Shown here one piece after another: positions 28,660 to 46,142 of a DNA stretch of 64,000 nt. The first letter of the stretch is position 1, and each line of letters starts with the position of its first letter. Both the position numbers and the translations under genes were made by a program. Source of the DNA: an uncultured Dehalococcoidales bacterium (GTDB lineage Bacteria; Chloroflexota; Dehalococcoidia; Dehalococcoidales; E44-bin46); contig CAZVIZ010000002.1 in assembly GCA_964627215.1 (NCBI GenBank), forward strand, positions 612 through 64,611. The letters run 5' to 3'. Below the pieces are notes generated by a model that was not told the DNA's origin, did not search any database, and saw only the letters and a list, made by a program, of their open reading frames with translations.

Positions 28660-28678
28660 CCGTCGCTCTCCTTTAGGC

Positions 28679-29010: not shown

Positions 29011-29027
29011 GCCTGAACCCCCTGAAT

Positions 29028-29067: not shown

Positions 29068-29107
29068 AAGGCTTGCTTTATGCGTTTTGGCGGGGTATGT
29101 CTCAGGC

Positions 29108-30019: not shown

Positions 30020-30118
30020 TATATATTAAAAAATAGCATCCTTGGTTTACTTATCGTTTAAAGGCCAAAACCATCTAATTCTAATACAATTCGCCCACTA
30101 ATTAAAGCCTTTAGCGAA

Positions 30119-30877
30119 TTATCGGGTTAGGAGACTTCTCATAAGCTCGTCCACCGCGCTTACCGCCGTGGAGGTAGGGGGTAGCTCTAACAGCGGCTTG
30201 GACTCCAGGTCGTAGCGGACTATATCGTCGTCGGCGGGGATTATGGCTGCGGGCTCTATACCCTGTTTTTGAAGCTCCTCCGCAACGGCCGGGGCGAGCG
30301 TATCGGGGACCATGTTTATTATGACCGATTCCCGCTTGACCCTGAGCCTCAGTTCGGCTATCAGCTGTCTTATCCTGGCGATGGTGCGTACTCCCTTCAC
30401 GGAGTGGTTAGAGACGATTAATAGCTCGTCTATGTCCTGGGTAGTGCGACGAGAAAGGTGCTCCATGCCGGCCTCGTTGTCCATCACCAGGTAGGTGTAG
30501 TTCTTGGCCAGGGCGTCGGCCATCTTGCGTACTATCAGGTTGGGGTAGCAGTAGCACTCTGGCCCCTCCCCCCGCCCCATGGTGAGCAGGTCCATGCCAT
30601 CGGCTTCGGTGATGGCCTCGTTAAGCTTGTACTCCAGGTAGACCTCCTTAGTCATTCCTGCGGGTATGGCTATCTTAGTGCCTTGGAACTCGTCCAGTAT
30701 CATGCCCACGGTGCGCTCTGCCTCCAGCCCCAAGCTCTCCCCCAGGTTGGCGTTGGGGTCGGCGTCTATGGCCAGTATGGGTCCGTCCCCCCTGGCTTTC
30801 AGGTGACGGATTATGATGCTGGAGATGGATGTTTTACCCGTGCCGCCCTTGCCGGCTACGGCTATACTAAGGGTCAT
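30119..30877 (-). CDS. cooC: CooC/AcsF-type nickel-insertion ATPase (copy 1)
   Basis: Deviant Walker A AGKGGTGKTS and the CxC metal motif (ECYCYP), in a MinD/ParA-like fold. Confidence 0.85.
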   Translation of the reverse strand: MTLSIAVAGKGGTGKTSISSIIIRHLKARGDGPILAIDADPNANLGESLGLEAERTVGMILDEFQGTKIAIPAGMTKEVYLEYKLNEAITEADGMDLLTMGRGEGPECYCYPNLIVRKMADALAKNYTYLVMDNEAGMEHLSRRTTQDIDELLIVSNHSVKGVRTIARIRQLIAELRLRVKRESVIINMVPDTLAPAVAEELQKQGIEPAAIIPADDDIVRYDLESKPLLELPPTSTAVSAVDELMRSLLTR

Positions 30878-30879
30878 AT

Positions 30880-32829
30880 TCAGTACTCTTTTCGGTTATT
30901 CTTGTGTCTGCCCAGGCGCTTGTATACCGAGGGGAACTCCTCCTCGTTGGGGTGGGGCAGGAACATGCTGGCGGTATAGTGGTTCATAAACTTGGGGTCC
31001 ACGCTTAATTCAACATTGGTCATCATATTGGCCACGGCCGCTCCATCATCCAGTATATCGGTGGAGAAGGACGTCAGACGCGCCCCCAGTATAGAGCCGT
31101 TGCCGATGAAGAAGAACCGCTCGCGTGGTATATCCGGCAGTAGCCCGATGGTGATGCTGTGCTCTATGTCTATGTGGCTGCCGAAGGCGCCGGCGATAAT
31201 CACCTCTTCCAGGTCGGCACAGCCCATGCCCACGCTTTCTATAAGCGTCTTATATCCGGCATAAAGGGCTGCCTTGGCTCTTATAAGGTTATCTATATCT
31301 ACCTCTGTTATGACGATGTCCTTCTTGGTCTTCGTCTCCCCCCCATAGGCGAGTATGTATTCATAGCCGTCGGGGCCTTTTCTAACCCTGTCGGTGGAGA
31401 GGTGGGTGTGGAACTTGCCGTTTTGTCCCAGTACGGCGGCGGTGAGAAGCTCCGCTATGATGTTTATAAGCCCCGAGCCGCAGATGCCCTTGGGCCTGCC
31501 CCCCCCGATTGTTTTTATGGTGGGTTTAAGGGTGTCCGGGTCTATGCTGAAGTCCTCTATGGCGCCCTCGGAGGCTATCATGCCGTGCTTTATGCCGCCC
31601 CCCTCAAATGCGGGGCCGGCGGAACAGGCGGCGGTTACCATCCAGTCCGAGTTGCCGATGACTATCTCGCCGTTGGTGCCGATGTCTATAAAGAGGGTCA
31701 GTTTCTTGCGCTGGTGTATCCCCGCGCCTACCACCCCGGATACGATATCGCCTCCCACATAGCTGGCCACAGCGGGTATGGCATAGACACGCACGTGCTC
31801 TGCCATATCCATTCCCAGCGAGGAAGCCCGCGCCAAAGGCGCGGTGCATATGGTGGGGGTGTAGGGGGCCAAACGCAGGTATTTGGGCTCCAGGCCGAAG
31901 AACAGCTGGGTCATGGTGCTGTTGCCTGCTATCACCACAAAGGCTATGTCCTCGCCCTTTAACTTACATTCGGAGAGCATGCGGCTGGTTATCTCGTTCA
32001 CCGTGCCCATTATGGCACGCTGCAGCTTCTTAAGCCCTCCCGCTTTGAGGCAGTAGGAGATGCGGGAGATGACGTCCTCGCCGTAGCTTATTTGGCCATT
32101 GTAATCCAGCGCCTCGGCGAGCACTTTGCCATTGGCCAGGTCCAAGAGCTGGCCCTTAACGCCGGTGGTGCCGATATCAAACGCCAGCGAGTAGAGTTGA
32201 TCCCTGGTGTCCCCTGGCTCTATATCGGCCAGCAGTAGGGGCATGTCTGAGGCGTTGGGGCCGGGGGTGATGGTGGTGGCGGTGACCTTCCAGTTCTCCT
32301 CGCGAAGCACGTCAGCCAGCTTGCGCACCACGCCGAAGTCCACGTTGAGCTTTTCAAGGCCGGCGTGTTGGGCGAGCCCCTTAAGCAGCCTGGCCAGGTC
32401 GCACTTGTTGTCCTCTATGGTGGGTGGGGTGAGCTCTATGAAATGCTTCTGGATAGGGGGGTGGAAGCACCAGCCGGTGGCGATATCCTCCGCCGGTTTA
32501 AGCCCCTTCTCTGTCTCCAGGGCCATAACCGCCGTCTCCAATCTGGACTCTATGGGGATATCCACTACCAGGTCGGTGAGCACCGCGCTCTGGCAGGCCT
32601 GCCTTGTGCCGCTTTTGTATTCGGCGGGCGTGATCCACTCCGTGCGGGTGGACTCCACCTCCCCTTGAACTATGTTTACCTTGCAGGTCCCGCAGGTACC
32701 TGCACCGCCGCAGGAAGCGGCGATACGCACTTCGGCGTCTATCGCCGCTTCCATGAGGTTCTTTCCCTTCCTCACCTCCACCTCCACCCCATTCGGTTCG
32801 AAACGAACCTTAAGCTTTCTCGGCGGCAT
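30880..32829 (-). CDS. reductive activator of the corrinoid Fe-S protein (RACo/AcsV-like; 2Fe-2S ferredoxin plus ASKHA ATPase)
   Basis: N-terminal plant-type ferredoxin CGGAGTCGTCKV and a C-terminal ASKHA/actin-like ATPase motif (DIGTNGEIV). The start is taken at ATG 32829, because the longer ORF would overlap fhs. Confidence 0.8.
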   Translation of the reverse strand: MPPRKLKVRFEPNGVEVEVRKGKNLMEAAIDAEVRIAASCGGAGTCGTCKVNIVQGEVESTRTEWITPAEYKSGTRQACQSAVLTDLVVDIPIESRLETAVMALETEKGLKPAEDIATGWCFHPPIQKHFIELTPPTIEDNKCDLARLLKGLAQHAGLEKLNVDFGVVRKLADVLREENWKVTATTITPGPNASDMPLLLADIEPGDTRDQLYSLAFDIGTTGVKGQLLDLANGKVLAEALDYNGQISYGEDVISRISYCLKAGGLKKLQRAIMGTVNEITSRMLSECKLKGEDIAFVVIAGNSTMTQLFFGLEPKYLRLAPYTPTICTAPLARASSLGMDMAEHVRVYAIPAVASYVGGDIVSGVVGAGIHQRKKLTLFIDIGTNGEIVIGNSDWMVTAACSAGPAFEGGGIKHGMIASEGAIEDFSIDPDTLKPTIKTIGGGRPKGICGSGLINIIAELLTAAVLGQNGKFHTHLSTDRVRKGPDGYEYILAYGGETKTKKDIVITEVDIDNLIRAKAALYAGYKTLIESVGMGCADLEEVIIAGAFGSHIDIEHSITIGLLPDIPRERFFFIGNGSILGARLTSFSTDILDDGAAVANMMTNVELSVDPKFMNHYTASMFLPHPNEEEFPSVYKRLGRHKNNRKEY

Positions 32830-32863
32830 ATCTTTCCTTGTCCCAGCGGATAATGGGGCGGTA

Positions 32864-34627
32864 TTAGAACAGCCCGTTGACCTTGCCCGTGTTAACATCC
32901 ACGTCCACCTTACGGAAGGCGGGGCTGGATGAGGTTCCCGGCATTAGGGTTATGGCGCCGGCACAGGGGCAGAGGAACTTGGCACCGGAGTATATGAGCA
33001 CGTCTCGGATAGGCAGTATCCATCCCTTGGGCACACCCTTCTTGGCGGGGTCGTGGCTCAGGGAGAGATGCGTCTTTACCATCATGGTGGCGTAGTCGTC
33101 GTACTTCTTGTCGGCCTCGAACATCTTGGCCTTCGCTTCGGCCTCTGGGGTCCAGGACACGCCGTCGGCGCCGTAGACCTCCTTGGCTATTGCGGCTACG
33201 CGGTCGCGCAGTTTGGTCTCGTTTGGATAGAGGAACTTGAAGTCACTGGTGTCCTCACAGGCTTCCTTGACCACGTCGGCCAGCTCCAGGGCGCCGTCGC
33301 CGCCGTCAGCCCAGTGTGTGGATACGGCGCAGCGCGCTCCGGCGGCCTCTGCTGCCTTCCTCACTGCGGCTATCTCGTTCTCGGTATCGGTATGGAAGCA
33401 GTTGACGCACACCACGGGGTTGATGCCGGACTTGCGGATAACGCCGATCAGGTGGGTCATGTTCTCCATGCCCTTCTCCAGCAGGCCTACGTCCTCCCTG
33501 GTGTATTCCTCGGGCAGAGGCAGGCCGGCTACTACCTTGGGGCCGCCGCCGTGCATCTTGAGTGCCCTGATGGTGGTGGTGAGCACAGACACGTGCGGTT
33601 TGAGTCCGCTGAAGCGGCACTTGACGTTCCAGAACTTCTCGAAGCCGATGTCGGCGGCGAAGCCGCTCTCGGTTACGTTGTAGTCAAACATCTTAAGGCC
33701 GATGCGGTCGGAGATGATGGAGGACTGACCCACGGCGATGTTGGCGAATGGCCCAGCGTGGACCATACAGGGCTGATACTCAGCGGTGCACATCAGGGTG
33801 GGGTTGATGGTGTTGCGCATCCAGGCTGTCATGGCGCCGCCGACTTCTAGATCGCCGGTGGTTACAGGCTCGCCACTCTTGCTGTAGCCGACGGTTATCT
33901 CGTCCATCCTCTTTCGCATGTCGGCGAGGTCGGTTACGATGGATAGCATAGCCATCAGCTCGGAGCTTACGGCGATGCCGAACTTGGACTGCATGGTGAA
34001 GCCATCATAGCGTCCGCCTAGGCCGATTATGATGTTGCGCAGTGACTGGGCGCAGAAATCCAAAATCCAGCCCATCTCTACGCGGGTGGGGTCTATGTCC
34101 AGGCGCTTCATCTTGGTCAGCCTGGCCAGCTGCTCGTCGTTGTAGTTTCGCTCGTGCTGCATCCTGGATGTCAGTGCTACCATGGCCAGGTTGTGGGCGT
34201 TCATAATGTCATTGATGTCCCCCGTGAGGCCCATGGAGAACTCGGTCATGGGGATCAAGAGGGAGTTGCCGCCGCCAGCGGCGGTACCCTTGATGTTCAT
34301 GGTGGGGCCGCCCGATGGCTGCCTGAGCGCGCCGCCTACGTTCCAGCCCCTCTTGCCCATACCTTCTATAAGGCCGCAGGCAGTGGTGCTCTTACCCTCG
34401 CCCAGGGGGGTGGGGGTGATGGCGGTTACCTCAATGTACTTGCCGTCAGGTTTGTTCTTGAGGCGGTCGATTATCTTCGCAAAATCGAGCTTGCACAGTC
34501 TCCCGTAAGGGATGACCTCTTCCTTCTCCAGCCCCAGCTTCTCTCGCCACTCGTCCGGAGTAGGCATGTTCTTTTCGGCAGCTTCTGATATCTGCCAGTC
34601 CTTCATTTTTACGGCATCATAGGCCAT
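32864..34627 (-). CDS. fhs: formate--tetrahydrofolate ligase
   Basis: Motifs [23 protein letters not shown] and GPFANIA; typical length of 587 aa. Confidence 0.94.
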
Positions 34628-34667
34628 AAAATACCTCCTTTAGGTTTTTTTAGGTCCGTTTAGGCTT

Positions 34668-35447
34668 TCAGGTGTCTTCTAGAGTACTATTTGATAAAGT
34701 CTGGTATATTGCGTCGACCGCCTCGGCTACCCTCTTGCTTGAGCTAAGAATGGGATGGTTGCCGAGGTCCGCATCTGCCAAGACCTGATCATAGGGAATA
34801 AAGCCCAGAAATTCGAATCCGGGCAGGTTAGAGAGCAATATCTCCTTCTGGCGGGGATTCTTTATCTTGTTCCCCACTAGGGCGATGTTGTTGAGGCCTA
34901 TGTCTTGGGCCATGGTGCTTATCCTTAGTGCGGTTTCAATGCTTCTTCTACCGGGTTCCACCACGATGATGAGTTTATCCACTGCCCTGGCCGTTCCCCG
35001 CCCCAGGTGCTCCACCCCTGCCTCCATATCCAGTATGACCACCTCGTCCCTGGCTATGAGCAAATGAGCCAACAGGGCTTGCAGCAGGGAACTCTCTGGG
35101 CAATAACAGCCCGCGCCACCCTGCTTTACCCTCCCCATCACCATCAGCTTGATCCCGTTATATTCTGCCGCATATCTCTGCGGTATGTCATCGACCTTAG
35201 GGCTTAGTTTATAGAGCGACCCGCTCTTGCCCGGCCGCGCCCCGGTCCTTTCCTCTATGAGATCGGCCATCTCCGATATGGGCGTTACCTCCTCGGGATG
35301 AGGGAATCCTATAGTGGCGGCCAGATTGGCATCTGGGTCGGCATCTATGGCTATCACCGCATATCCCTGCTCGGCGAAACGCTGGCAAAGGAAAGACGAC
35401 AGCAGGGTTTTGCCCACCCCGCCCTTACCGCTGATTGCGAGCTTCAT
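34668..35447 (-). CDS. cooC: CooC/AcsF-type nickel-insertion ATPase (copy 2)
   Basis: Walker A SGKGGVGKT and the CxC motif (GCYCPE). It is a diverged paralogue of the 30119-30877 gene. Confidence 0.85.
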   Translation of the reverse strand: MKLAISGKGGVGKTLLSSFLCQRFAEQGYAVIAIDADPDANLAATIGFPHPEEVTPISEMADLIEERTGARPGKSGSLYKLSPKVDDIPQRYAAEYNGIKLMVMGRVKQGGAGCYCPESSLLQALLAHLLIARDEVVILDMEAGVEHLGRGTARAVDKLIIVVEPGRRSIETALRISTMAQDIGLNNIALVGNKIKNPRQKEILLSNLPGFEFLGFIPYDQVLADADLGNHPILSSSKRVAEAVDAIYQTLSNSTLEDT

Positions 35448-35495
35448 GTTAAGCTCCGTATTCTATCTAAACTGGGACAGCCGCCGCTTCAGGCG

Positions 35496-35535
35496 GCTAT
35501 TGGGAACAAAAGCCCGGACCCGCCCCGTTTAGGTG
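35496..35535 (-). terminator. intrinsic terminator after mvhD copy 1
   Basis: On the - strand: a 10-bp perfect GC stem (gacccgcccc / ggggcgggtc) with an 8-nt loop, then cgggCTTTTGTT. A second 7-bp hairpin lies at 35470-35489. Confidence 0.6.
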
Positions 35536-35562
35536 GGGCGGGTCGGTATATAGCGTACAGCT

Positions 35563-36012
35563 TTACGCCGTGGCTCCTACTAGAACCTTGTCCTTGATCT
35601 CTACCTTCTCTGCCGGACCCATCTGCTTCAGCTCTTCGGTGAACTCGGTAACTACCTCGGCGAAGCGGGTGCCTTCAGCGGCGGAGACCCATTCCAACCT
35701 TAGCCTCTCCGGCTCTATGCCCATCTGGGGCAGCATCTGCTTAAGCATCAGCACGCGCCGGCGGGTCTTGTAGTTGCCGCATATGTAGTGGCAGTCTCCG
35801 GGGTGGCAGCCGCCGATGAACACACCGTCGGCTCCCTGGCGGAAGGCATCCAGTATGAATTCCGGATCCACCGCGCCGGAGCACATTACCCTTATCACCC
35901 TAAGATTGGGTGGGTACTGTAGCCTGGACACACCGGCCAGGTCAGCGCCAGCGTAGGTGCACCAGTTGCACAAGAACCCGACTATCTTCGGTTCGTACCC
36001 TTCTTTGGACAT
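35563..36012 (-). CDS. mvhD: MvhD/FlxD-like [2Fe-2S] electron-transfer subunit (copy 1)
   Basis: Motifs IVGFLCNWCTYAGADLAG and VMCSGAVDP...GGCHPGDCHY, typical of the methyl-viologen-reducing hydrogenase delta subunit family. Confidence 0.85.
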   Translation of the reverse strand: MSKEGYEPKIVGFLCNWCTYAGADLAGVSRLQYPPNLRVIRVMCSGAVDPEFILDAFRQGADGVFIGGCHPGDCHYICGNYKTRRRVLMLKQMLPQMGIEPERLRLEWVSAAEGTRFAEVVTEFTEELKQMGPAEKVEIKDKVLVGATA

Positions 36013-36017
36013 ATCTT

Positions 36018-39000
36018 TTATACTCCCAAACTAGCTCTTACCATAGCGCCTATCTGTGTCTTGCTGAAGCCCCTCTGCTGGGCCGCCCCGGAAGGACAGG
36101 CCGCGCAGCAGGTTCCGCAGCCCTTACACAGGGCCTCGTTGACCTCGGCCACGCCTCGTTCTTTATTGACGTGGATGGCGCTGTAAGGACAGACCGTCTC
36201 GCAGGTGCCGCAGGCGGAGCACATGTCCTCGTCTATCGAGGATACTATGCCCTCGGCCATTATGGTCTCCTTGGCCAGGATGGTCCCGGCTCGGGATGCG
36301 GCGGCCTCGGCTTGCGTGATTATCTCGTCCAGCGACTTGGGTGCGTGGGCCAGCCCACAGAGGAACACGCCGTCTGTGGCGAAGTCCACTGGGCGCAGCT
36401 TGACGTGGGCCTCCAGGAAGAAGCCGTCTTCGTTTATAGGCACCTTGTAGAAGGTGGCTACCTCTTTGGCCTCCTCAACGGGCACTACGGACACGGACAG
36501 CGCCAGGATATCGGCGTCTATGGCTATGCTGTCTTCCAACACCGGGTCGTTGCCCTCTACCCTTATCATGTACCTTTCGCCCTGTCGCATCTGGGTGACC
36601 TTAGGCGGGTTGGCGGGGTCGTAGTTGATAAACATAACGCCTTGCCTGCGGGCCTCATGGTAGAAGTCCTCATTGAAGCCGTAGGTCCTTATGTCGCGGT
36701 AGAAGACGTAGATGTTCATGTCTGGCTTGAGGGCTTTAAGCTTCAGGGCGTTGGCGACCGCCTGGTTACAGCATGTCCTGCCGCAGTAGGGGCGTTTCTC
36801 GTTGCGGCAGCCCACGCACTGAATCATCACCAGGTTATCGCATTCCATTACGCTCTTGTCTTGCTTGACAATCACGTCCTCCAGCTCGGACTGGGTGAGC
36901 ACTCTGGGGTCCTTGCCGTAGAGGTATTCGCCCTCGGGCTTGTATTCCTCGGCGCCGCAGGCGACTATGGTGGCGCCGTGTTCTATTTTCTCCACGGCCA
37001 CGCCGCGGTGCCTCATCACCTCGGTGGTGAAGTTGCCCACGTACCCGTAGGCGTCCACTATCCAGGTGTCTGTGTTGACCTTGATGTTGGGGTTGTCATC
37101 AACCTGCTTTATCAGGTCTGCCAGGTAGGCCTGGACATTGTCGTTGGTGAGGGTGTAGTGCATCTTGCGGGTTATGCCGCCGAGCTCGGAGTTCTTCTCT
37201 ACTATGTGAACCTTGAAGCCCTGTTCGGCCAGAGTGAGCGCGCTCACCATGCCGGCCACGCCGCCGCCTATTACCAGGGCGGAGTGGTTTACAGGTATGA
37301 GCTGAGGAAGTAGCGACCTCTTGAGCGCTACCTTGGCTGCCGCCATGCGTACCAGGTCCTTGGCCTTGGCGGTGGCCGCCTCCGGCTCGTTCATGTGGAC
37401 CCAGGAGCATTGGTCGCGGATATTGGCCATCTCAAAGAGGTATTTGTTTAGCCCGGCCTCTCGTAATGTCTCCTGGAACAGGGGTTCGTGCGTCCTGGGG
37501 GTACAGGAGGCCACCACGAGGCGGTTGAGCTTGTTATCCAGTATGGCCTGCTTTATCTTGTCCTGGGTATCCGAGGAGCAGGTGTAGAGGTTGCAGTCGG
37601 CGAACTCCACTCCGGGCAGCGTCTTGGCGTATTCCGTAACTCCGGGGACGTCCAGGTAGCCGCCGATGTTGATGCCGCAGTGGCAGATAAACACGCCTAT
37701 CCTGGGCTCCTCGCCGGTTACGTTTCTTTCCTCGGGGTATTCCTTCTGGGTTGTCAGGGTGTTGCGCCCATCAGAGAGCAGGGCGGATACGCTTCCCGCC
37801 GCGCCGCTGGCTTGCATTACGGTCTCGGGGATGTCCTTGGGGCCCTGGAAGGCGCCGCAGACGAAAACGCCATCCCTTGACGTCTCCACCGGCGAGAAGG
37901 TGTCCGTGTGGGCGAAGCCGTATTTATTCAGCTGGACGTCCAGCCTCTTGGCCATGTCCACGGCGGGTGGCGAGGGGTCGAGCCCTACCGACAGCACCAC
38001 CAGGTCGAATTCGCGGGACTGGTTTCTGTCGTCTTCGCCGAGGAACTTGATCTTCAGGTTGCCTTCCTCTTCACCTGCCTCTATGCCGTAGACCTTGGCG
38101 CGGACGAAGTCTATGCCCTTCGCCTTGCCCTTCTCGTAGAACTTGTCAAAGTCCTTGCCGTGCGTTCTTATATCCATGTAGAAGATGGTCTCGTTTAGCT
38201 CGTAGTCGACATGCTCCTTGGCGATCATGCCTTCCTTGATGGCATAGGTACAGCATACGGAGGAGCAGTAGCCCCTGCCTATGCTCTCGTCCCTGGAGCC
38301 GACGCATTGTATCCAGGCGATGTTCTTAGGCTCCTTGCCGTCCGAAGGTCGTATCAAGTGGCCCTGGAAGGGGCCGGATGCCGAGAGCATCCTCTCGAAC
38401 TCTATGCTGGAGACCACGTTGGGGTACTTGCGGTATCCGTACTGGTATAGAGGGGTGGGGTCAAACTCGTCGAAGCCGGGGCAGAGTATCACCGAGCCCA
38501 CGTTAAGCTCTGCTATCTGGTCAGTCATATCGTGGGTTGTACTGGTGATGGCATCTGCTTGGCAGGCTACTACGCACTGCTTACACTCGCAGCAGAGACC
38601 GCAGTCCAGGCATCTGCCAGCCTCTTTGACTGCCTGCTCCTCCGTGAGTGCCAGCTCTATCTCCGTGTATCCCGCTCTCTTGTCCACAGATAGCACGGTT
38701 GCGTTCTCCCTGGCTTGTCGTTCCTCACCCCAGGGGATGAAGTCCAACTCGGCAGGGGTCTTGTCGGGGGCTGTCCTGCCCTCCTTCAAGTCCTTGCCCT
38801 CTATGAGGCGGGCGATGGACTCCGCCGCCCTGGCGCCTTCCGCCACCGCGCCCACCGCGATCCAGGGGCCGGTCTGGCAATCGCCGCCGGCGAAGACCCC
38901 ATCCTTTGAGGTCTGAAGGGTTATCTCATCTACCTTTACGGTGCCCTTCTTGGTGAGCTCTATGCCGCTCTTGGCGAAGGGTGATGTCTGAGGTGACTGT

Positions 39001-40481
39001 CCGATGGCGGGGATTATGATGTCCACCGGCATATCAAACTCGGAGCCCTCGATGGGCATGGGGCGTCTTCTGCCGCTGGCATCAGGCTCTCCAAGCTCCA
39101 TCTTGGTGCATTTAAGGGCAGCTACCTCGTTGCCCTTGGTTACTACCTCCAGTGGGGCTACCAGGTACTCTATCTTTATGCCCTCTTCCTCGGCGCCCTC
39201 TATCTCCTCGGCACGGGCGGGCATCTCCACCCTGGTGCGGCGGTATAGTATGGTGACATCATCGGCGCCCTGGCGCAGTGCCGAGCGAGCCGCATCTATG
39301 GCCACGTCTCCACCGCCCACCACCACCACCTTGCCCTTGGTCTTCACATCTTTACCCAGGTTTATGTCTCGGAGAAGCTCCACGCCGGGTATGACGCCCT
39401 TGGCGTCCTCGTTGGGTATGCCCAGCTTCTGGTCGCCGTGGGCACCCACGCCGATGAAGACCGCCTTGTAGCCCTTCTTCATAAGGTCTTCTATCTTGGT
39501 CTTATCGCCGATGGGGGAGTTGGTCTTTATCTCGATACCCAGGTCGGCTATCTCCTGTATCTCCTCCTTGAGGACGTCCTTGGGCAGGCGGTATCCGGGT
39601 ATGCCTACCTGGAGCATGCCGCCGGCCTTGGGTAGCGCCTCAAAGATAGTGGGCTGATAGCCCTGGAGCCTGAGGAAGTAGGCGCAGCTTAGGCCTGCCG
39701 GGCCTGAGCCGATTATGGCCACCTTGCCCTCTTTCTCCTCTATCTCCGGCTTGGTGTCCTGGCCCTTGGCGGTATCAGCGACGAAGCGCTTTATCTCGCG
39801 TATGGCCAGGGGTTCCTCTATCAGCTGTCGGTTACACTTCTCCTCGCAGGGGGCGGGGCATATACGGCCCAGCGCCCTGGGGATGGGAAGCTTTTCTTTC
39901 ATTACCTCAAGCGATTCGGCGAACTTGCCCTGGGAGCACAGCGCCACGTATCCCTGAACGTTGGTTCCCGCCGGGCAGGTGAGCGTGCACGGGGCTCTCT
40001 TTCTCTTGTCCACGGCGAAAGCGTTAGGGTAGGCCTGGGCGAAGGGGCGGTATACCGCCTTCCTCTCGGCTAGGCCCTGTTCAAACTCGCTGGGGGCCTC
40101 AATAGGGCAGACCTCGGCGCACTCGCCACAGCCTGTACACTTGCTCTCATCCACAAATCTGGGATGGCGCACTATCTTGGCCTTGAAGTCGCCTGGCAGC
40201 CCGTCTACCTCCATAAGCTCGGAGCAGGTGAGCAGCTCTATATTGGGGTGCCTCCCGCATTCAATAAGCTTAGGGGATAGGATACACATGGAACAGTCCA
40301 GTGTGGGGAAGGTCTTGTCCAGCTGGGCCATCACACCGCCTATAGCGGGGGATTTCTCCACCAGGTAGACCTTATATCCAGCCTCGGCGAGGTCAAGCGA
40401 TGCCTGGATGCCGCCGATGCCGCCCCCCACCACCATCACCGCCCCGATAGTCTTATCAGACTTCTTAGCACATTCTTGCAT
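36018..40481 (-). CDS. giant HdrA-like flavoprotein fusion: HdrA N-domain, GltD/NfnB-like NAD(P)H module, HdrA core, then a second complete HdrA-like unit with C-terminal ferredoxin
   Basis: 1487-aa uninterrupted ORF with three dinucleotide-binding GxGxxG sites (VVGGGIGG, IIGSGPAG plus VVGGGDVA, VIGGGVAG). It has the HdrA signatures CVGSRD..YCSSVCC and CVGCRN..YCGRTCC. The GltD-type Fe-S lead-in is CP..GRICPAPCEEKC. Several CxxCxxCxxxCP motifs are also present. Confidence 0.85.
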   Translation of the reverse strand: MQECAKKSDKTIGAVMVVGGGIGGIQASLDLAEAGYKVYLVEKSPAIGGVMAQLDKTFPTLDCSMCILSPKLIECGRHPNIELLTCSELMEVDGLPGDFKAKIVRHPRFVDESKCTGCGECAEVCPIEAPSEFEQGLAERKAVYRPFAQAYPNAFAVDKRKRAPCTLTCPAGTNVQGYVALCSQGKFAESLEVMKEKLPIPRALGRICPAPCEEKCNRQLIEEPLAIREIKRFVADTAKGQDTKPEIEEKEGKVAIIGSGPAGLSCAYFLRLQGYQPTIFEALPKAGGMLQVGIPGYRLPKDVLKEEIQEIADLGIEIKTNSPIGDKTKIEDLMKKGYKAVFIGVGAHGDQKLGIPNEDAKGVIPGVELLRDINLGKDVKTKGKVVVVGGGDVAIDAARSALRQGADDVTILYRRTRVEMPARAEEIEGAEEEGIKIEYLVAPLEVVTKGNEVAALKCTKMELGEPDASGRRRPMPIEGSEFDMPVDIIIPAIGQSPQTSPFAKSGIELTKKGTVKVDEITLQTSKDGVFAGGDCQTGPWIAVGAVAEGARAAESIARLIEGKDLKEGRTAPDKTPAELDFIPWGEERQARENATVLSVDKRAGYTEIELALTEEQAVKEAGRCLDCGLCCECKQCVVACQADAITSTTHDMTDQIAELNVGSVILCPGFDEFDPTPLYQYGYRKYPNVVSSIEFERMLSASGPFQGHLIRPSDGKEPKNIAWIQCVGSRDESIGRGYCSSVCCTYAIKEGMIAKEHVDYELNETIFYMDIRTHGKDFDKFYEKGKAKGIDFVRAKVYGIEAGEEEGNLKIKFLGEDDRNQSREFDLVVLSVGLDPSPPAVDMAKRLDVQLNKYGFAHTDTFSPVETSRDGVFVCGAFQGPKDIPETVMQASGAAGSVSALLSDGRNTLTTQKEYPEERNVTGEEPRIGVFICHCGINIGGYLDVPGVTEYAKTLPGVEFADCNLYTCSSDTQDKIKQAILDNKLNRLVVASCTPRTHEPLFQETLREAGLNKYLFEMANIRDQCSWVHMNEPEAATAKAKDLVRMAAAKVALKRSLLPQLIPVNHSALVIGGGVAGMVSALTLAEQGFKVHIVEKNSELGGITRKMHYTLTNDNVQAYLADLIKQVDDNPNIKVNTDTWIVDAYGYVGNFTTEVMRHRGVAVEKIEHGATIVACGAEEYKPEGEYLYGKDPRVLTQSELEDVIVKQDKSVMECDNLVMIQCVGCRNEKRPYCGRTCCNQAVANALKLKALKPDMNIYVFYRDIRTYGFNEDFYHEARRQGVMFINYDPANPPKVTQMRQGERYMIRVEGNDPVLEDSIAIDADILALSVSVVPVEEAKEVATFYKVPINEDGFFLEAHVKLRPVDFATDGVFLCGLAHAPKSLDEIITQAEAAASRAGTILAKETIMAEGIVSSIDEDMCSACGTCETVCPYSAIHVNKERGVAEVNEALCKGCGTCCAACPSGAAQQRGFSKTQIGAMVRASLGV

Positions 40482-40496
40482 TACTTACTTCCTCCT

Positions 40497-40976
40497 CTAG
40501 GCTTTAACCTTCTCCTTGCCCAATGCTCCGTCCGCAAGCTGAGCCACCTCTTGGTTGGAGGGTTCAGCCTTCTTGTCCAGTATGGATAGCACCATGCCGT
40601 GGCGCAGACGCTGCGCGAAGGAGTCTATCTCTCTTATCTTGTCTACGAAAGAAGGATGGACGTAACCTTCCCGTACCGCCAGGCTCCGTAGCGCCTTCAT
40701 CACATCGGCGAAGTCCACGCATTGGGGGCAGTGGGCCTGGCAGGTGTAGCACTGCGAGCAGAGCCAGATTGTGTTGGAGGACAGAACCTCCTTCTTCATT
40801 CCTAGTAGCACCATGCGAATTATCTGTCTGGGGTTGTATTTGGGGTCAATGTCGGATACAGGACAGCTGGCGGTGCAGAGTCCGCAGGCGAAGCAGTGCT
40901 TGAGGTTATCGCCACCCGGTTCCGCGGCTACATCGTATTTGAACTTGCTGTCCAGTTCGTTTAAGACTATTGTCAT
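40497..40976 (-). CDS. hdrC: HdrC-like 2x[4Fe-4S] protein
   Basis: Motifs CFACGLCTASCP and CSQCYTCQAHCP, with spacing and length typical of heterodisulfide reductase subunit C. An AGGAGGAGG SD lies upstream. Confidence 0.8.
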   Translation of the reverse strand: MTIVLNELDSKFKYDVAAEPGGDNLKHCFACGLCTASCPVSDIDPKYNPRQIIRMVLLGMKKEVLSSNTIWLCSQCYTCQAHCPQCVDFADVMKALRSLAVREGYVHPSFVDKIREIDSFAQRLRHGMVLSILDKKAEPSNQEVAQLADGALGKEKVKA

Positions 40977-41072
40977 CTTCCTCCTCCTTAAAAGTCTTTA
41001 GTTTAATCCCTTTCAGTTAGTCCCTCTGGTTATGGAATATTCACCTCTATTGGTTAAGGAACTCTCCAAAGT

Positions 41073-41966
41073 TCACTGCAGTCCAGCGGCCTCCAGAATC
41101 TCTGGGACCCTGTCCTCCTTGCCAATGAACATGATGTGGGTTCCGTCACACAGTTTTTCTTCCTTGGCCTTTCTTATCAGCCTGCCGGCTATCTCTATCC
41201 CCTTCTGGATTCCGGTGCCCTTGGGGGCCTCGGACAGCTCATCTATCATGTATTGGGGCACGAAGATGCCGGGGACGTGGTCGTTCATGTAGGCTGCCAT
41301 CTTGGCGCCGGTAGCTGGCACTATGCCCAGCAGAACCTTAACCTTGTCGTCCCACTTGCGTACCGCCTCCGTGAACCGCTTTATCTCCTCCAGCTCATAG
41401 ACGGCCTGTGTCTGTATGAAGTCCACACCGGTGTCAAGCTTCTTCTTAACCCTTATCATCTGCGGCTCTATGGGATCCGCCGATGGGGTGGTGGAGCAGC
41501 CGATGCAGAAGTCGGTCTTGCCGTGAAGCTCATGGCCCTCCATGTCCTTGCCCGAGTTCAAGGTGTGGACCATATGGATTAGCTGGGTGGAGTCCAGGTC
41601 GAACACTTGCTTGGCCTCGGGGTGATCGCCCACGTCTATGGAGTCTCCGGTGAGGCAGAGGACGTTGCGTATCCCCCGCGACCAGGCGAAGAGCAGGTCA
41701 GCCTGCAGGGCCAGGCGGTTGCGGTCGCGGCAGGTCATCTGTAAAACAGGCTCGCCGTCGTTCTCTTTTATGAGAAGGCATACGCCGACGGATGGATAGC
41801 GCATGACCGAGCTTTGATTGTCGGTCACATTCAGGCCGTCCACCTTGTCCTTGAGTATCTTGATGTGCTCCATTGAGTGGTCTGTGTTGGCACCCTTTAA
41901 GGGGGCCGCCTCAGCGGTGACCACAAAGTCCTTGGTTTTCAGTACTTCTCTTAAATCCTTCGCCAT
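41073..41966 (-). CDS. metF: methylenetetrahydrofolate reductase, acetogen type (copy 2)
   Basis: Motifs TDNQSSVMRY, MTCRDRNR, LCLTGD and IQTQAVYE. It is a diverged paralogue of the 19077-19958 gene. Confidence 0.85.
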   Translation of the reverse strand: MAKDLREVLKTKDFVVTAEAAPLKGANTDHSMEHIKILKDKVDGLNVTDNQSSVMRYPSVGVCLLIKENDGEPVLQMTCRDRNRLALQADLLFAWSRGIRNVLCLTGDSIDVGDHPEAKQVFDLDSTQLIHMVHTLNSGKDMEGHELHGKTDFCIGCSTTPSADPIEPQMIRVKKKLDTGVDFIQTQAVYELEEIKRFTEAVRKWDDKVKVLLGIVPATGAKMAAYMNDHVPGIFVPQYMIDELSEAPKGTGIQKGIEIAGRLIRKAKEEKLCDGTHIMFIGKEDRVPEILEAAGLQ

Positions 41967-41976
41967 CCTTCGTCTC

Positions 41977-42636
41977 CTAAGCCTTCATCGCTTCTATCCT
42001 ACCCGGTCGCTTTACGGCGCGGTGGTTCTTGGGCGGGTAGTACGTTTCCATAAGCTCCAGCCTACCTTGTTTGGCTAAGCGGTCGTATATCAGCGTCCAG
42101 GCGCAGTCCTTCTCCTGGTCTATCTCACACTTGCCGCCTTTCCTGGTACCGCCGCAGGGGCCGTTTAAGAGACCCTTGGCGCAGCGCACCATGGGGCAGA
42201 CGGCGCCGGTCTTATCCAGGACGCAGTCGCCGCAGTGGCCACAGTTTTCCAACCACAGGCCCTCGCCCTCGGGACGCCCCAGGAAGGTGGTGTTGACGCC
42301 AGGTACTACTGGAGTGTCTTCAAACACCTCGGCGGTGGTCTGTATCCCTGCCCCGCAGGCCAAGGATATCACCACCTCTGCCGCCTCCACCTGGTCCTTT
42401 ATGTCTTCCAGCATCTCCTTCTCGCACTGTCTTTCCACGGTGGCTTCAACCAGGTCTATCGCTTGGCCTGCCTTCTCGCGGGCTAGCTTTATCTGCGATG
42501 CCAGGATTCCCACCTCTTTCTCGCCACCTGCCCAGCAGATGGCCACGCAGGTGTCACAGCCTAAAAGGAGCACCTTCTTGTAGGGAGCTATCATGTTCAG
42601 TATCTGCTCAAAGGGCTTTCTTTCCGCTATTATCAT
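41977..42636 (-). CDS. metV: MetV-type Cys-rich partner subunit (copy 2)
   Basis: Motifs LGCDTCVAIC, LACGAGIQ and CGHCGDC...CPMVRCAKGLLNGPCGG. It is paralogous to the 19987-20655 gene. Confidence 0.8.
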   Translation of the reverse strand: MIIAERKPFEQILNMIAPYKKVLLLGCDTCVAICWAGGEKEVGILASQIKLAREKAGQAIDLVEATVERQCEKEMLEDIKDQVEAAEVVISLACGAGIQTTAEVFEDTPVVPGVNTTFLGRPEGEGLWLENCGHCGDCVLDKTGAVCPMVRCAKGLLNGPCGGTRKGGKCEIDQEKDCAWTLIYDRLAKQGRLELMETYYPPKNHRAVKRPGRIEAMKA

Positions 42637-43025
42637 GATTTCACCGCCTCTCCCTTTATTCTCTGGTTCATATCTTTGACTATCTTTACGAACTTATGGG
42701 GGGCGTTGGCAGCCAGTTTAGCCATGGCCACGCGGTTACCGTCTATGCCTGCCTCATTGAGCAGTTTCTCGGAGTAGTTTACCCTCTCTTCTGCTCTCGA
42801 GTTTCCGGTGAGATGCTTACACAGGTCCTCCTCGCACCCCAGCACCAGGACCCCTTCAGCACCCTCTTCCATAGCCTTGAGGATATGGAGGATATCCACC
42901 CGTCCGGCGCAGGGGACGCGGATAACCCTCAAGTTATCGGGGCATTCCAGCTCTTGCTTGCCCGCCGCATCGGCGGCCAAGTAGGCGGAGTGTTGACAAC
43001 AGAAAGCTACAATTTTTCCGTTCAT
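42633..43025 (-). CDS. mvhD: MvhD/FlxD-like subunit (copy 2)
   Basis: Motifs IVAFCCQHSAYLAADAAG and VPCAGRVD...GCEEDLCKH. It has 4-nt overlaps with both neighbouring genes. Confidence 0.8.
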   Translation of the reverse strand: MNGKIVAFCCQHSAYLAADAAGKQELECPDNLRVIRVPCAGRVDILHILKAMEEGAEGVLVLGCEEDLCKHLTGNSRAEERVNYSEKLLNEAGIDGNRVAMAKLAANAPHKFVKIVKDMNQRIKGEAVKS

Positions 43026-44650
43026 GATGCTCCTATCGCTTCTATTTGTGCCATTATTTGCTCGTCGCTATAGCCCTCAAAGGTTATGGCCTTCACTGGG
43101 CAGATAGCGGCGCAGATACCGCACTGGTCACAGGCTAGCGGCTGAATCTCGGCCGCCATGCTGTCACCGTTCGCGCCATTTACCTCTATGGCCTTATGTG
43201 GGCAGACCCGCACGCAGGTCAGGCAGACGACGCATTTCTGGGGATCGACCTTCACCCTATCTGCCTCCACGGATACCTCTTCCTGGGAGAGTAGCGCGTA
43301 GACCTTGGCCGCCACACTGGTGATATCGGTCATCAAGCGGGTTATGTCCAGGTCGCCGCGGCAGCTGCCGGCGAAAAGTATGCCCTTTCTCTCCGAGAGG
43401 ACGGGGTATAGATGGACGTTTTCCTCCTGGTAGAAGCCCTTGGAGTCCGTTCCCACCTTGGTCATGGCGCTCAAGGCTTCAGCATCCTTGGCGGGGAGGA
43501 TACTCTCCTCGGCCACGAGCAGGTCGCAGCTTAGAGAGATGTCGTCTCCCAGTAGGGGATCCGTGGCCTCTATCTTCACCTGACCGTTAACCGAGACTAC
43601 CTTAGGGGACTCGTCGTATTTTATAAATATCACGCCGTTGCCCCTGGCGTCGCGGTATAACTTCTCTATACCCTCGCTATCTACTTTGACGCTCTTACAG
43701 AAGACGTAGACCTCGCTGCCCCAACGCTGGCGTATATCCATGGCGTTATTCAGGGTGGCCAGGGTAGATAGGCGTGAGTTCTCGTCGGAGACGTCAAACA
43801 TGAAGGCTATTGTGTGGGGGTTCTCCCCCGGCACTTCTCCCTCCAGCATCTTGGCTAGGCCCATCTGTGTAGTGACCTTTGTCCCGCACACGGGGAAGTC
43901 GCTTGCGGAGACCTCCGGCCTGTAGCCGGTGGCCAGGACCATAGCGCCGCACTTACGCAGGGACTTTTCGCCGTCCTTTTTCACCTCTGCGGTGAAGCGG
44001 CCGGCGTTGCCCTTGACGTCTAAAAGCTCTGTGGAGGTGAGCACGTCTATGTTCTTATCCTTCTTTACGGCATTTACCAGGGCATCAGTTTCTTGGCCGC
44101 CCATCGTCTCCATCTGCCGTATCTTGCCGCCCAGGTCGTTCTCTTTTTCCACCAGGGTGGTCTTGATGCCCATTCGCGCTAGTTCCAGCGCGGTGCTCAT
44201 TCCGGAGAAGCCGCCGCCTATAACCATGGCCTCCTGGTTAACCGGCACCTCGGTGGTTTCCACCGGCTGGAGCAGCCTGGCGCGGCTGATCGCCATCATT
44301 ACAGCCTCCAGGGCGGCGTTTGTCGCATCCCCCTTAGTGGCCCAGGAGCACTGCTCCTTGATGTTGGCCATTGCTAGTATGTTGGATTCCATGCGCAGCT
44401 TTTTAAGCAGCTCGGTGAAATGCTTCTCATAGAACGACGGCGAGCAGCCAGCGATGACAATCCTGTTTATGTCCTCGGTGAGGATACGGGACGCTATCGC
44501 CTTTTCACCCTCGTTGGTGCATAGGTCATGGGCGATATCGACAAAGGCCACATCGTCCAGACCTTCCAGCGACTTACCGAGCTTGGCGAAGTCTATATTT
44601 TTCAGACCCTCCTCGCAGTCGCAGAGGAAAATACCTAACTTTACGCGCAT
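43022..44650 (-). CDS. HdrA-like flavoprotein, C-terminal-type unit (inserted-ferredoxin-like domain, FAD domain and 2x[4Fe-4S])
   Basis: N-terminal LGIFLCDCEEG...IAGCSP...ANIKEQCSW, then VIGGGFSGMSTALELA, and C-terminal CVVCLTCVRVCP plus CDQCGICAAICP. It is collinear with the second half of the 1487-aa fusion. Confidence 0.8.
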   Translation of the reverse strand: MRVKLGIFLCDCEEGLKNIDFAKLGKSLEGLDDVAFVDIAHDLCTNEGEKAIASRILTEDINRIVIAGCSPSFYEKHFTELLKKLRMESNILAMANIKEQCSWATKGDATNAALEAVMMAISRARLLQPVETTEVPVNQEAMVIGGGFSGMSTALELARMGIKTTLVEKENDLGGKIRQMETMGGQETDALVNAVKKDKNIDVLTSTELLDVKGNAGRFTAEVKKDGEKSLRKCGAMVLATGYRPEVSASDFPVCGTKVTTQMGLAKMLEGEVPGENPHTIAFMFDVSDENSRLSTLATLNNAMDIRQRWGSEVYVFCKSVKVDSEGIEKLYRDARGNGVIFIKYDESPKVVSVNGQVKIEATDPLLGDDISLSCDLLVAEESILPAKDAEALSAMTKVGTDSKGFYQEENVHLYPVLSERKGILFAGSCRGDLDITRLMTDITSVAAKVYALLSQEEVSVEADRVKVDPQKCVVCLTCVRVCPHKAIEVNGANGDSMAAEIQPLACDQCGICAAICPVKAITFEGYSDEQIMAQIEAIGAS

Positions 44651-45699
44651 CTCTGTAAAACCTCCATCGCTCGTTCTGCTGCCGAGATTCCGTGGGCGAT
44701 TGAATCGGGGATGTCTTTGGGGCTCTGGCAGGCACCGGCAAGGAACACTCCGTCTACATTGGTATCTGTTGAGTTGAACTTCGCCTTGGTGGCGAGGAAG
44801 CCGTTGTCAGCCAGGCTTATGCCCAGGGTCTGGGCCACGTCCCAGGAGTCGTCTCTGGGGGAGATGCCCACCGAGAGGGTCACCAGGTCAAATATCTCTC
44901 GCTCCACTTTCCCGTTGACGATGTTCTCAAAGCGCACCTCCAGCTGCTTGTCAGCGGTTTCCAGTATCTCTACGGGGACGCCGCGGACGAAGCGAACGGA
45001 CTCCTTGCTCTCCTCGTAGCTGGGCGTGAAGCCCTTGCCCGCTGTCTGGAGGTCTATGTAGAAGATGGTCACCTCGGCTTCGGGGTCGTTGTAGTTGATG
45101 AGGTTGGCCAGCCTGATGGCGTATTTACAACATACGTGGGAGCAGTAGTTGTGCTTCTCATCCCTGGAGCCGACGCACTGTATAAAGGCTATCTTCTTAG
45201 CCTTCCTGTTGTTGGTGGGCAGCTTAAGCTCGCCCTCGGTGCGGAACATTTTCTCCAGGTCCAGGCCGCTAACGATGTTGGGGTAGCGGCCGTAGCTCAG
45301 GCAGCCGAGCTCCTTGGCGTTAAACGCCTTGAAGCCGGTGGCGGCGATTACCGCGCTCGCCTTAAGCGTCTCTGTCTCTTGGGGCGACATATGTTGGGCA
45401 TTGCGTGCTACCTCCACCTGGAAGTCCCCCGTCTCTCCGGTTACTGCGGTTACCGTGGAATTGGCCATGACAGATACGCGGGGGTGGTCACTGACTTCGG
45501 CCACCTTCTGGGGAACCAGACAGGCCGAGCACTTGGTACAGGCTTCGGTGGCCTTACAGCAGAACTCAACAGCCTGGCCGCCCAGGCTGTCTTCCTTCTC
45601 TATAAGATGTACGTCATAACCGTTGTTGGCTAGTTCCAACGCCGAGGTTATACCCGCGATGCCACCGCCGATCACTACGATAGACTTGGTCTCTTTCAT
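44641..45699 (-). CDS. HdrA-like flavoprotein, N-terminal-type unit
   Basis: Motifs VVIGGGIAGITSALELA, CTKCSAC, IQCVGSRDEKHNYCSHVCCKYA and GVFLAGACQSPKDI. It overlaps the downstream unit by 10 nt (ATGCGCGTAA). Confidence 0.8.
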   Translation of the reverse strand: MKETKSIVVIGGGIAGITSALELANNGYDVHLIEKEDSLGGQAVEFCCKATEACTKCSACLVPQKVAEVSDHPRVSVMANSTVTAVTGETGDFQVEVARNAQHMSPQETETLKASAVIAATGFKAFNAKELGCLSYGRYPNIVSGLDLEKMFRTEGELKLPTNNRKAKKIAFIQCVGSRDEKHNYCSHVCCKYAIRLANLINYNDPEAEVTIFYIDLQTAGKGFTPSYEESKESVRFVRGVPVEILETADKQLEVRFENIVNGKVEREIFDLVTLSVGISPRDDSWDVAQTLGISLADNGFLATKAKFNSTDTNVDGVFLAGACQSPKDIPDSIAHGISAAERAMEVLQRCA

Positions 45700-45702
45700 G
45701 AT

Positions 45703-46110
45703 TTACTTAGTCTTTCCTCCTAGGAGTGTCTTCACTCTTTTTAGAAGCTCCTCGGGATCGATGGGTTTGTGCATGTAGTCATCAGCCTCCATCAACATCC
45801 CTTCATTTACAGCCAGTCCGGCGCCCTCTCTTTCGTCAGGATAGACGGTGAGCATAAGCACCGGAATCTTGGAGAAGAAGTAGTATTTTTCATTGGTCTT
45901 GAGGTCGCGGCAAACCTCAAACCCGTTCTTGCCGGGCATGACTACGTCCAGGATAATCAGATCCGGCTTCTCCTCTATGATCTTCTCCAGACCCTCGACC
46001 CCGTCCATCGCCTGACTGACCTCATAGCCCTCGCTATCCAGGACCTTCTTCAGCACTTTCTGTAGGTTGGCGTCATCGTCTATGGTTAGGATTCTAGTTT
46101 TCTTGTCCAT
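45703..46110 (-). CDS. stand-alone response-regulator receiver protein (CheY-like, no output domain)
   Basis: Receiver motifs ILTIDDD, DLIILDVVMPG and KP. Only 135 aa long. Its stop lies 3 nt before the hdrA-like start. Confidence 0.88.
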   Translation of the reverse strand: MDKKTRILTIDDDANLQKVLKKVLDSEGYEVSQAMDGVEGLEKIIEEKPDLIILDVVMPGKNGFEVCRDLKTNEKYYFFSKIPVLMLTVYPDEREGAGLAVNEGMLMEADDYMHKPIDPEELLKRVKTLLGGKTK

Positions 46111-46142
46111 TTGCCCCTCCTTTGTCGGGTTCTCGCTTCCTT

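Follow-up and report, generated by a model that had tools for sequence, protein, structure and literature searches.

A Moorella-type HdrA-GltD-HdrA fusion in a Wood-Ljungdahl gene cluster of a marine Dehalococcoidia bacterium

Can one polypeptide combine two HdrA units with a complete NAD(P)H-oxidising GltD-like module, and what would such a protein do in a Wood-Ljungdahl gene cluster? The question is raised by a 1487-codon open reading frame (ORF), here called hdrL, in a 64-kb stretch of DNA from an uncultured Dehalococcoidales bacterium (contig CAZVIZ010000002.1 of assembly GCA_964627215.1), which we refer to as the window. An earlier, sequence-only reading of the window had described the ORF as a fusion of two HdrA units and a GltD-like module, and had taken such a triple fusion to be biochemically uncharacterised. 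We find that HdrL is a marine Dehalococcoidia copy of the described Moorella-type HdrA/HdrL and not a new kind of enzyme. Judging from its domains, relatives and neighbours, it is likely to serve an Hdr-type methylene-tetrahydrofolate (methylene-THF) reductase of the Wood-Ljungdahl pathway as its large subunit, which carries flavins and iron-sulfur clusters. The place of such reductases in the energy metabolism of acetogens, and of anaerobes that oxidise acetate or methyl groups, is unsettled.

The frame begins with ATG and continues for 4.46 kb without an internal stop, according to the ORF list and the translation (coordinates of all features are collected in Table 1). The motifs quoted in the sequence-only reading are all present in the translated protein (GRICPAPCEEKC, IIGSGPAG, VVGGGDVA, CVGSRD...YCSSVCC, VIGGGVAG and CVGCRN..YCGRTCC), and its equation of residues 162-560 with nucleotides (nt) 38802-39998 is arithmetically right. 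A frame of this length might be suspected of being an assembly or frameshift artefact that fuses separate hdrA and gltD genes, and it had been proposed to check its continuity. A homologue search with HdrL recovered at least 120 clusters of full-length orthologues from independent assemblies, 1419-1523 amino acids (aa) long and 56-75% identical to the query. The same architecture is found in complete genomes of cultured Firmicutes, including Desulfotomaculum nigrificans, Desulforamulus ruminis, Desulfoscipio gibsoniae and others, in proteins of ~1475-1483 aa. On 35400-41200, 0 inserted or deleted letters appear in the Logan contigs of four seawater metagenomes, which belong to three studies. 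In two of these metagenomes, single contigs together cover all three fusion junctions, at residues ~160, ~622 and ~907-923 (38388-40615 and 36288-37860 in metagenome X1, 38512-40440 and 37380-37860 in X2). Predicted ligand cysteines are kept on both sides of each junction. Nothing positive speaks for an artefact; the sole oddities are a 2- to 3-fold rise of Logan contig depth at 37728-37921 and three contig joints leading from 37685/37848 to 40294-40354, which skip ~2.4-2.6 kb and have a shorter side of 20-26 nt. Both most likely come from k-mers common to paralogous hdrA genes of the community. A deletion form of hdrL, as a reading of these joints, was rejected because of their short sides and their location at a high-depth conserved motif. 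The artefact explanation is effectively refuted, and we give it next to no weight.

What does the frame encode? Pfam and a sequence search of the PDB agree with the order HdrA-GltD-HdrA. In Pfam, Rossmann folds for flavin adenine dinucleotide (FAD) lie at residues 15-52 and 1068-1103, Fer4 at 110-130, Fer4_20 at 161-240, a complete two-Rossmann unit (Pyr_redox_2) at 253-549 and a dicluster ferredoxin at 1415-1466. Each of the two HdrA units, called A and B below, aligns to methanogen HdrA (5odc_A, 8rvu_a) at E values of ~1e-119 to 1e-127, with the FAD site, the HA4 cysteines and the ferredoxin domains conserved. Methanogen HdrA differs in being a single ~650-aa unit with all four domains; it is a homodimer and has HdrBC and hydrogenase as partners.

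Unit A is encoded in two pieces. Residues 14-159 of the first piece correspond in the PDB search to methanogen HdrA 153-298, that is, to the FAD-binding start of the thioredoxin-reductase-like domain, with a GGGIGG Rossmann motif, and to the first half of the inserted ferredoxin domain with its CxxCxxCxxxCP motif (C115, C118, C121 and C125). The DKTFPTLDCSMC motif in this piece holds C63 and C66, the counterparts of HdrA Cys194 and Cys197. The second piece begins with the other half of the inserted ferredoxin domain (C630, C633, C636, C640) and continues into the remaining thioredoxin-reductase-like FAD domain, where the [4Fe-4S] site CVGSRD...YCSSVCC is formed by C726, C739, C743 and C744. 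Unit A carries E696 and K749, the signature of a bifurcating flavin; E696 was assigned from the IEFERM motif at 693-698 and the alignment to HdrA E356. Neither the N-terminal nor the C-terminal domain of HdrA is present in this unit.

Between the two pieces lies the GltD/NfnB-like module that the sequence-only reading had placed in the first of two tandem HdrA units, and Pfam and the unambiguous structure matches bear this out. Residues 162-636 match best the NfnB-like domain of the large subunits of NfnABC and Stn enzymes (9bov_A, 9n5u_A and 8oh5_C; E=7e-138 for 9bov_A to 6e-114 for 8oh5_C), followed by NfnB (4ylf_B, E=6e-90) and GltD (6s6s_G, E=1.6e-67). The module has iron-sulfur (FeS) ligands C165, C169, C208, C212 and C216, with GRICPAPCEEKC as the lead-in, an FAD motif GSGPAG at ~257, an NAD(P)H motif GGGDVA at ~389 and YRR at 413-415. 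It splits the inserted ferredoxin domain of unit A between its two halves. Like stand-alone NfnB and GltD, residues 160-622 comprise a Fer4_20 lead-in and FAD and NADPH Rossmann folds; the stand-alone proteins differ in being independent, ~460 aa long and partnered by NfnA or GltB, with a contiguous N-terminal RCxxC...CxxxCP motif, whereas the module in HdrL is embedded. No NfnA- or GltB-like gene is found among the neighbours of hdrL. The module opens with the CxxxCP half of the canonical cysteine motif (C165, C169; nt 39975-39989), and the displaced EAxRCLxC half, here EAGRCLDC (C624, C627; nt 38595-38612), stands directly after it. The module thus appears to be circularly permuted relative to canonical NfnB/GltD. 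The Fer4_20 match begins at profile position 28, consistent with the displacement of this half. A trailing EAxRCLxCG motif after the flavin domains is also found in the StnA/NfnABC large subunits, in which the module is joined to a formate-dehydrogenase-like domain and has HydB/HydC-like partners, not HdrA.

Unit B complements unit A. Residues 924-1487 align to HdrA 2-236 and 319-644 and end in the dicluster ferredoxin, which bears out the second HdrA unit and its 2x[4Fe-4S] tail; HdrA 237-318, the inserted ferredoxin domain, is missing, as is a counterpart of Cys197. The separate "inserted thioredoxin/ferredoxin-like domain" of the sequence-only reading turned out to be the ordinary N-terminal MvhD-like FeS domain of unit B, with C933, C935, C968, C993 and C1025. 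The [4Fe-4S] site of unit B is formed by C1222, C1233, C1237 and C1238. At the sequence level, the two units are shown to be complementary in the way of the two protomers of the methanogen HdrA dimer, since unit A gives C66 and the inserted ferredoxin domain and unit B the single N- and C-terminal FeS domains. By its predicted sites, HdrL would have room for three flavins and at most nine [4Fe-4S] clusters.

We then considered which of these features the family keeps, using a MAFFT alignment of 120 full-length orthologues. At least 119 of them have C63/C66, C115/118/121/125, C165/169/208/212/216/624, C630/633/636/640, C726/739/743/744, C933/935/968/993/1025, C1222/1233/1237/1238, C1421-1431 and C1452-1462; the sole exception among the predicted cluster ligands is C627, kept in 69%. 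Both HdrA Rossmann motifs, the FAD and NAD(P)H motifs of the GltD-like module and YRR 413-415 are likewise retained in at least 119, and K749 in 120/120. Databases give such proteins uninformative names, and the NCBIfam scores account for this. There is no NCBIfam model dedicated to the architecture, and HdrL falls below the cut-offs of the HdrA equivalogs (NF041778, 704 vs 1400; NF041891, 672 vs 1300; NF040770, 969 vs 1100). It also stays below that of TIGR01316 (351, cut-off 471.75), and only the generic PRK12771, "NAD(P)-binding protein", reaches its cut-off.

The literature contradicts the view that the triple fusion is uncharacterised. HdrA of Moorella thermoacetica (Moth_1194; 162.8 kDa, 1487 aa) was described by Kremp et al. 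(2022, PMC9430772): its residues 922-1487 are an HdrA without the inserted ferredoxin domain, and its N-terminal half consists of an extra ferredoxin and a thioredoxin-reductase-like domain interrupted by GltD. Three FAD sites, one NAD(P)H site and the pairs E696/K750 and E1204/K1246 were listed, and eight clusters were predicted (PMC9430772). The NADH:benzyl-viologen activity of this protein was 190 U/mg, vs 0.5 U/mg for the GltD-less HdrA of S. ovata (PMC9430772). It belongs to the MetFV-HdrABC-MvhD complex of Mock et al. (2014), for which two activities are on record, the reduction of benzyl viologen by NADH and that of methylene-THF by reduced viologen (PMC5861303); NADH was not coupled directly to methylene-THF, and hence a second acceptor was proposed. 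The name HdrL has been in use for the fusion since 2009, always with mvhD following it (Strittmatter et al., PMC2702500; HdrL1-3 of Desulfobacterium autotrophicum), and an HdrABC/HdrL complex was detected in the Syntrophobacter proteome (Sedano-Nunez et al. 2018, PMC5947623; S. fumaroxidans Sfum_0824). Given the Moorella layout, its measured NADH:viologen activity and the name HdrL, the triple fusion is neither undescribed nor biochemically untouched.

How close is the window protein to these systems? By published description, Moorella HdrA has the same length and layout, E696/K750 where HdrL has E696/K749, and mvhD, metV, metF and hdrC as neighbours. The differences are that Moorella has hdrB, of which there is none in the window; that metVF lies downstream of hdrA-mvhD in Moorella and upstream in the hdrL locus; that the latter has an extra split HdrA pair and a second mvhD; and that the second-unit K1246 of Moorella is replaced by Ala (A1243), a lysine that is a Moorella trait and not a strict family criterion. 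The hosts differ too, a Firmicute and a marine Dehalococcoidia bacterium. Sulfate-reducer HdrL is likewise always followed by mvhD, but some D. autotrophicum copies have selenocysteine where HdrL of the window has Cys, the partners suggested for it are DsrC, HdrBC or Fdh and not MetFV, and the loci include hdrB. In HdrA9-11 of ANME-1 (anaerobic methanotrophic archaea), a ~500-aa NfnB-like insertion lies within the HdrA inserted ferredoxin domain (Chadwick et al. 2022, PMC9012536), the same domain that is interrupted in HdrL; these proteins are archaeal and are not reported beside metF. In tandem and fused HdrAs, explicitly including the MetFV-associated HdrA of Moorella, one unit has the N-terminal domain and the other its Cys197 ligand (PMC9012536). 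The fused HdrA3/4 of ANME has the unit with the N-terminal domain first, whereas in HdrL the Cys197-bearing unit comes first. Altogether the peculiarities of the locus are modest: no HdrB in the window, the split HdrA pair with a second MvhD, the Lys-to-Ala change in unit B and, in two related metagenome-assembled genomes (MAGs), the module swap described below.

We also surveyed the distribution of the architecture, as the sequence-only reading had proposed. A scan of species-representative genomes found 317 stretches coding for an HdrL relative, of which 80 loci were kept, nearly all with a full-length gene. The M. thermoacetica protein itself was absent from the homologue searches seeded with the query and with a Peptococcaceae orthologue; the latter returned many cultured Firmicutes. 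The closest loci, from which the source lineage is judged to be marine Dehalococcoidia, belong to Dehalococcoidales/Dehalococcoidia MAGs (64-74% identity to HdrL) and have an eight-gene cassette in common, kept whole with the split HdrA pair in the Dehalococcoidales MAGs L002, L003, L004, L068 and L069. The identity is 49-53% across the whole protein for orthologues of Desulfobacterales and Syntrophales MAGs, and 47-50% for those of Firmicutes. The gene mvhD lies immediately downstream in 59 of the 65 loci with room for it. A metF or metV gene is found in the flanks of 25/80 loci, from Dehalococcoidia, Desulfobacterales, Firmicutes and one Planctomycetaceae MAG, in two gene orders. The order in Desulfobacterales is metF-like, hdrC, hdrB, hdrL, mvhD, metV, metF (hdrB at L027:7452-7988); that in Syntrophales is hdrL, mvhD, an FeS protein gene, hdrC, hdrB and nfnAB-like genes, without metFV (hdrB at L011:14490-15380). 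The Moorella/HdrL architecture is thus widespread, and it is conserved in marine Dehalococcoidia.

Two independent Dehalococcoidia MAGs bear on the role of the inserted module. In both (L068:7989-14062 and the same coordinates of L069), hdrL is split just past the first ferredoxin motif, ~30 residues N-terminal of the point at which the GltD-like module starts in HdrL, and the neighbouring genes are unchanged. In place of the module there are a NuoE-like gene, a NuoF-like gene (flavin mononucleotide, FMN; NADH) and a [2Fe-2S]/2x[4Fe-4S] segment like the N-terminus of NuoG, fused to the rest of HdrA. From the genes involved, one NAD(P)H-oxidising module seems to have been exchanged for another in nature. 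That two unrelated pyridine-nucleotide dehydrogenase modules occupy the same ferredoxin domain supports the idea of the insertion as an NAD(P)H port, exchangeable at this site. The arrangement is reminiscent of BamE-I of class II benzoyl-CoA reductase. Tandem HdrA-HdrA fusions without the GltD insertion, like that of S. ovata, were seen as well (L008:1226-4252, L022:283-3291 and 15783-18767, L050, L071, L072); they coexist with full hdrL genes in several genomes and are also followed by mvhD.

These comparisons, together with the neighbourhood, point to the function. HdrC-like and MvhD genes flank hdrL, as the sequence-only reading had noted, and metVF adjoins, all inside a complete Wood-Ljungdahl cluster. 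The proposal of that reading that the NAD(P)H module replaces the hydrogenase or Flx partner of known complexes and feeds MetFV is reasonable and matches the literature on the Moorella enzyme (PMC9430772). In the mechanism that we favour, NAD(P)H would be oxidised at the FAD of the GltD-like module, a role that fits the NuoE/F/G-like replacement of this module. Electrons would then pass singly through the two clusters of the module and those of the ferredoxin domain, and probably the N-domain cluster, to the FAD of unit A, the only flavin in HdrL with the full E/K signature. One branch would start from this FAD with the HA4 [4Fe-4S] cluster, pass through the HdrC-like protein, MetV and the FMN of MetF, and end at methylene-THF. 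The other, a low-potential branch by analogy with the Moorella proposal, would run through the ferredoxin domain of unit B, MvhD or both to ferredoxin or another carrier. The net process would bifurcate electrons when run reductively and confurcate them when run oxidatively.

Several observations weigh against this scheme. Published work demonstrates no bifurcation even for the Moorella complex and names no established second acceptor for it (PMC9430772, PMC5861303). About 2/3 of the related loci are without metFV in their flanks. A tblastn search of the window with two HdrB proteins found no HdrB/CCG gene (best E=0.5); hdrB could be elsewhere in the genome. Unit B has E1201 but A1243 (nt 36753-36755) at the signature Lys position, which is Lys in 98/120 orthologues. 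The sequence-only reading was right about two HdrA FAD units, and this residue weakens the idea of two bifurcating sites. Firmicutes orthologues have YRR too, and NADH is the reported substrate of the Moorella enzyme; a specificity for NADPH based on this motif was therefore rejected. No RNA run holding the HdrL sequence was found.

HdrL might instead act with MvhD as a general NAD(P)H:ferredoxin redox balancer of the Nfn kind, using any high-potential acceptor module such as HdrBC/DsrC or FdhAB, and the proximity of metVF would then be a matter of operon convenience and not the mark of a dedicated methylene-THF reductase. The Syntrophales loci, in which mvhD, the FeS protein gene, hdrC, hdrB and nfnAB-like genes occur without metFV, are in line with this, as are the literature that ties HdrL to DsrC and sulfite reduction or to FdhAB, and the CooC, Fhs and RACo genes that adjoin hdrL. 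With metFV missing from ~2/3 of the loci and the Syntrophales gene beside hdrBC and nfnAB-like genes, HdrL is not tied to MetFV everywhere. However, the adjacency of hdrL, mvhD, metV and metF recurs in two gene orders and several phyla, and in the window hdrL follows 15 nt after the hdrC-like gene, itself 96 nt after metF. The Moorella homologue, moreover, co-purified with MetFV (PMC5861303, PMC9430772). We consider a general redox balancer unlikely for HdrL of the window.

In the second alternative, the flavins and clusters are no more than a wire that carries electrons from NAD(P)H to MetF. This transfer, from ~-320 mV to ~-200 mV, would be exergonic and would need no second acceptor, and unit B and MvhD would be structural or relay elements only. 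GltD modules serve in glutamate synthase as plain NADPH-to-FeS wires, and the missing signature Lys of unit B (A1243) is compatible with such a role. Published work shows bifurcation for no Hdr-type methylene-THF reductase (PMC9430772, PMC5861303). On the other hand, unit A has E696/K749, the signature that marks bifurcating HdrA flavins, and in the Moorella complex no direct coupling of NADH to methylene-THF was seen (PMC5861303). A third branch is favoured by the number of extra clusters that the family conserves and by mvhD, which lies directly downstream in 59/65 loci. A non-bifurcating wire is improbable in our view, and the Hdr-type methylene-THF reductase with a bifurcating unit A flavin is the reading that we retain.

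Since there is no HdrB in the window, unlike the Moorella, Desulfobacterales and Syntrophales loci, the wiring to MetFV may differ here. The locus thus presents the Moorella/HdrL architecture without an HdrB gene within 64 kb. Together with the wide spread of the architecture and the exchangeable module, this may guide the choice of constructs for biochemistry or cryo-electron microscopy; it opens no new question. The cassette also codes for a second pair of HdrA-like proteins. The 352-aa protein is 37% identical to unit A and has Arg at the signature Lys position; the 542-aa protein is 30% identical to unit B over 562 aa and has lost the HA4 cysteine motif. Given these similarities, the cassette codes for a split and a fused HdrA pseudo-dimer, with an MvhD gene behind each. 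A tentative idea, and one that we hold to be rather doubtful, is that the products of the Dehalococcoidia eight-gene cassette form one HdrB-less supercomplex around MetFV. If so, CCG/HdrB would be dispensable for Hdr-type methylene-THF reductases, only the flavin of unit A would bifurcate, and L068 and L069 would represent a natural exchange of the donor module on one scaffold.

Table 1. Positions in the window of hdrL, its domains and the neighbouring cassette genes
Feature	Coordinates	Strand	Remarks
hdrL / Moorella-type hdrA, HdrA-GltD-HdrA fusion, entire ORF including stop	36018..40481	(-)	1487 aa
Unit A, first part, residues 1-159	40005..40481	(-)	aligned to HdrA 153-298
GltD/NfnB-like module, residues 160-622	38616..40004	(-)	Pfam, PDB sequence search, orthologue alignment
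Unit A continued, residues 623-906	37764..38615	(-)	aligned to HdrA 292-569 (PDB sequence search)
Linker between HdrA units, residues 907-923	37713..37763	(-)	PDB sequence alignments of both units
Unit B N-terminal MvhD-like FeS domain, residues 924-1055	37317..37712	(-)	aligned to HdrA 2-130
Unit B thioredoxin-reductase-like FAD domain, residues 1056-1410	36252..37316	(-)	PDB sequence search; motif GGGVAG
Unit B C-terminal 2x[4Fe-4S] ferredoxin domain, residues 1411-1487	36018..36251	(-)	C1421-C1431, C1452-C1462
mvhD (FlpD family)	35563..36012	(-)	5 nt downstream of hdrL
hdrC-like 2x[4Fe-4S] protein, 159 aa	40497..40976	(-)	15 nt upstream of hdrL
metF (methylene-THF reductase), copy 1	41073..41966	(-)	96 nt before the hdrC-like gene
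metV, copy 1	41977..42636	(-)	
Second mvhD	42633..43025	(-)	
HdrA-like, 542 aa, unit-B type	43022..44650	(-)	N-terminal FeS, FAD domain, C-terminal dicluster ferredoxin
HdrA-like, 352 aa, unit-A type	44641..45699	(-)	FAD domain only; CVGSRD..YCSHVCC site

The cassette is part of a (-) strand block that codes for essentially the whole Wood-Ljungdahl pathway. The block begins with the eight cassette genes, for the 352-aa and 542-aa HdrA-like proteins, MvhD, MetV, MetF, the HdrC-like protein, HdrL and MvhD; it continues with CooC, Fhs, RACo, CooC, FolD, AcsD, AcsA, AcsB, AcsC and AcsE, and closes with a second MetV and MetF and a DUF3786 protein. From the 352-aa gene through the mvhD past hdrL, all genes lie on one strand with overlaps of 4-10 nt or gaps of 5-96 nt. 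A promoter and terminator consensus scan of 28000-47500 gave no more hits than shuffled sequences (11 vs 9.6 and 24 vs 19.7) and is uninformative for operon boundaries. Scans of the window for tRNA genes and Rfam families found one tRNA-Asp and nothing else.

The Wood-Ljungdahl cluster contains two metV-metF pairs, one amid the hdr genes (41073-42636, (-) strand) and one beside acsE (19077-20655, (-) strand). The marine Chloroflexi single-cell genome DscP3 also has two non-identical metVF sets (PMC5736913). Divergent from the block are a NuoF-like ORF at 13799-15682 (+) and an ORF at 15692-18364 (+) for a molybdopterin formate-dehydrogenase-like protein with a NuoG-like N-terminus; a 170-aa ORF at 13324-13836 (+), just upstream of the NuoF-like one, is NuoE-like at a guess. 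Their similarities suggest that 13324-18364 (+) encodes a formate dehydrogenase that is linked to pyridine nucleotides and may bifurcate. The region 45703-47300 (-), directly upstream of the cassette, codes for a stand-alone response-regulator receiver and for a histidine kinase that has a cyclic-nucleotide-binding domain, followed by a LuxR-type regulator and a GAF-PAS kinase at 47430-50161 (+). A response regulator lies directly upstream of the metF-like gene in the Desulfobacterales locus L027 too, and phoBR flank metF_1 in DscP3.

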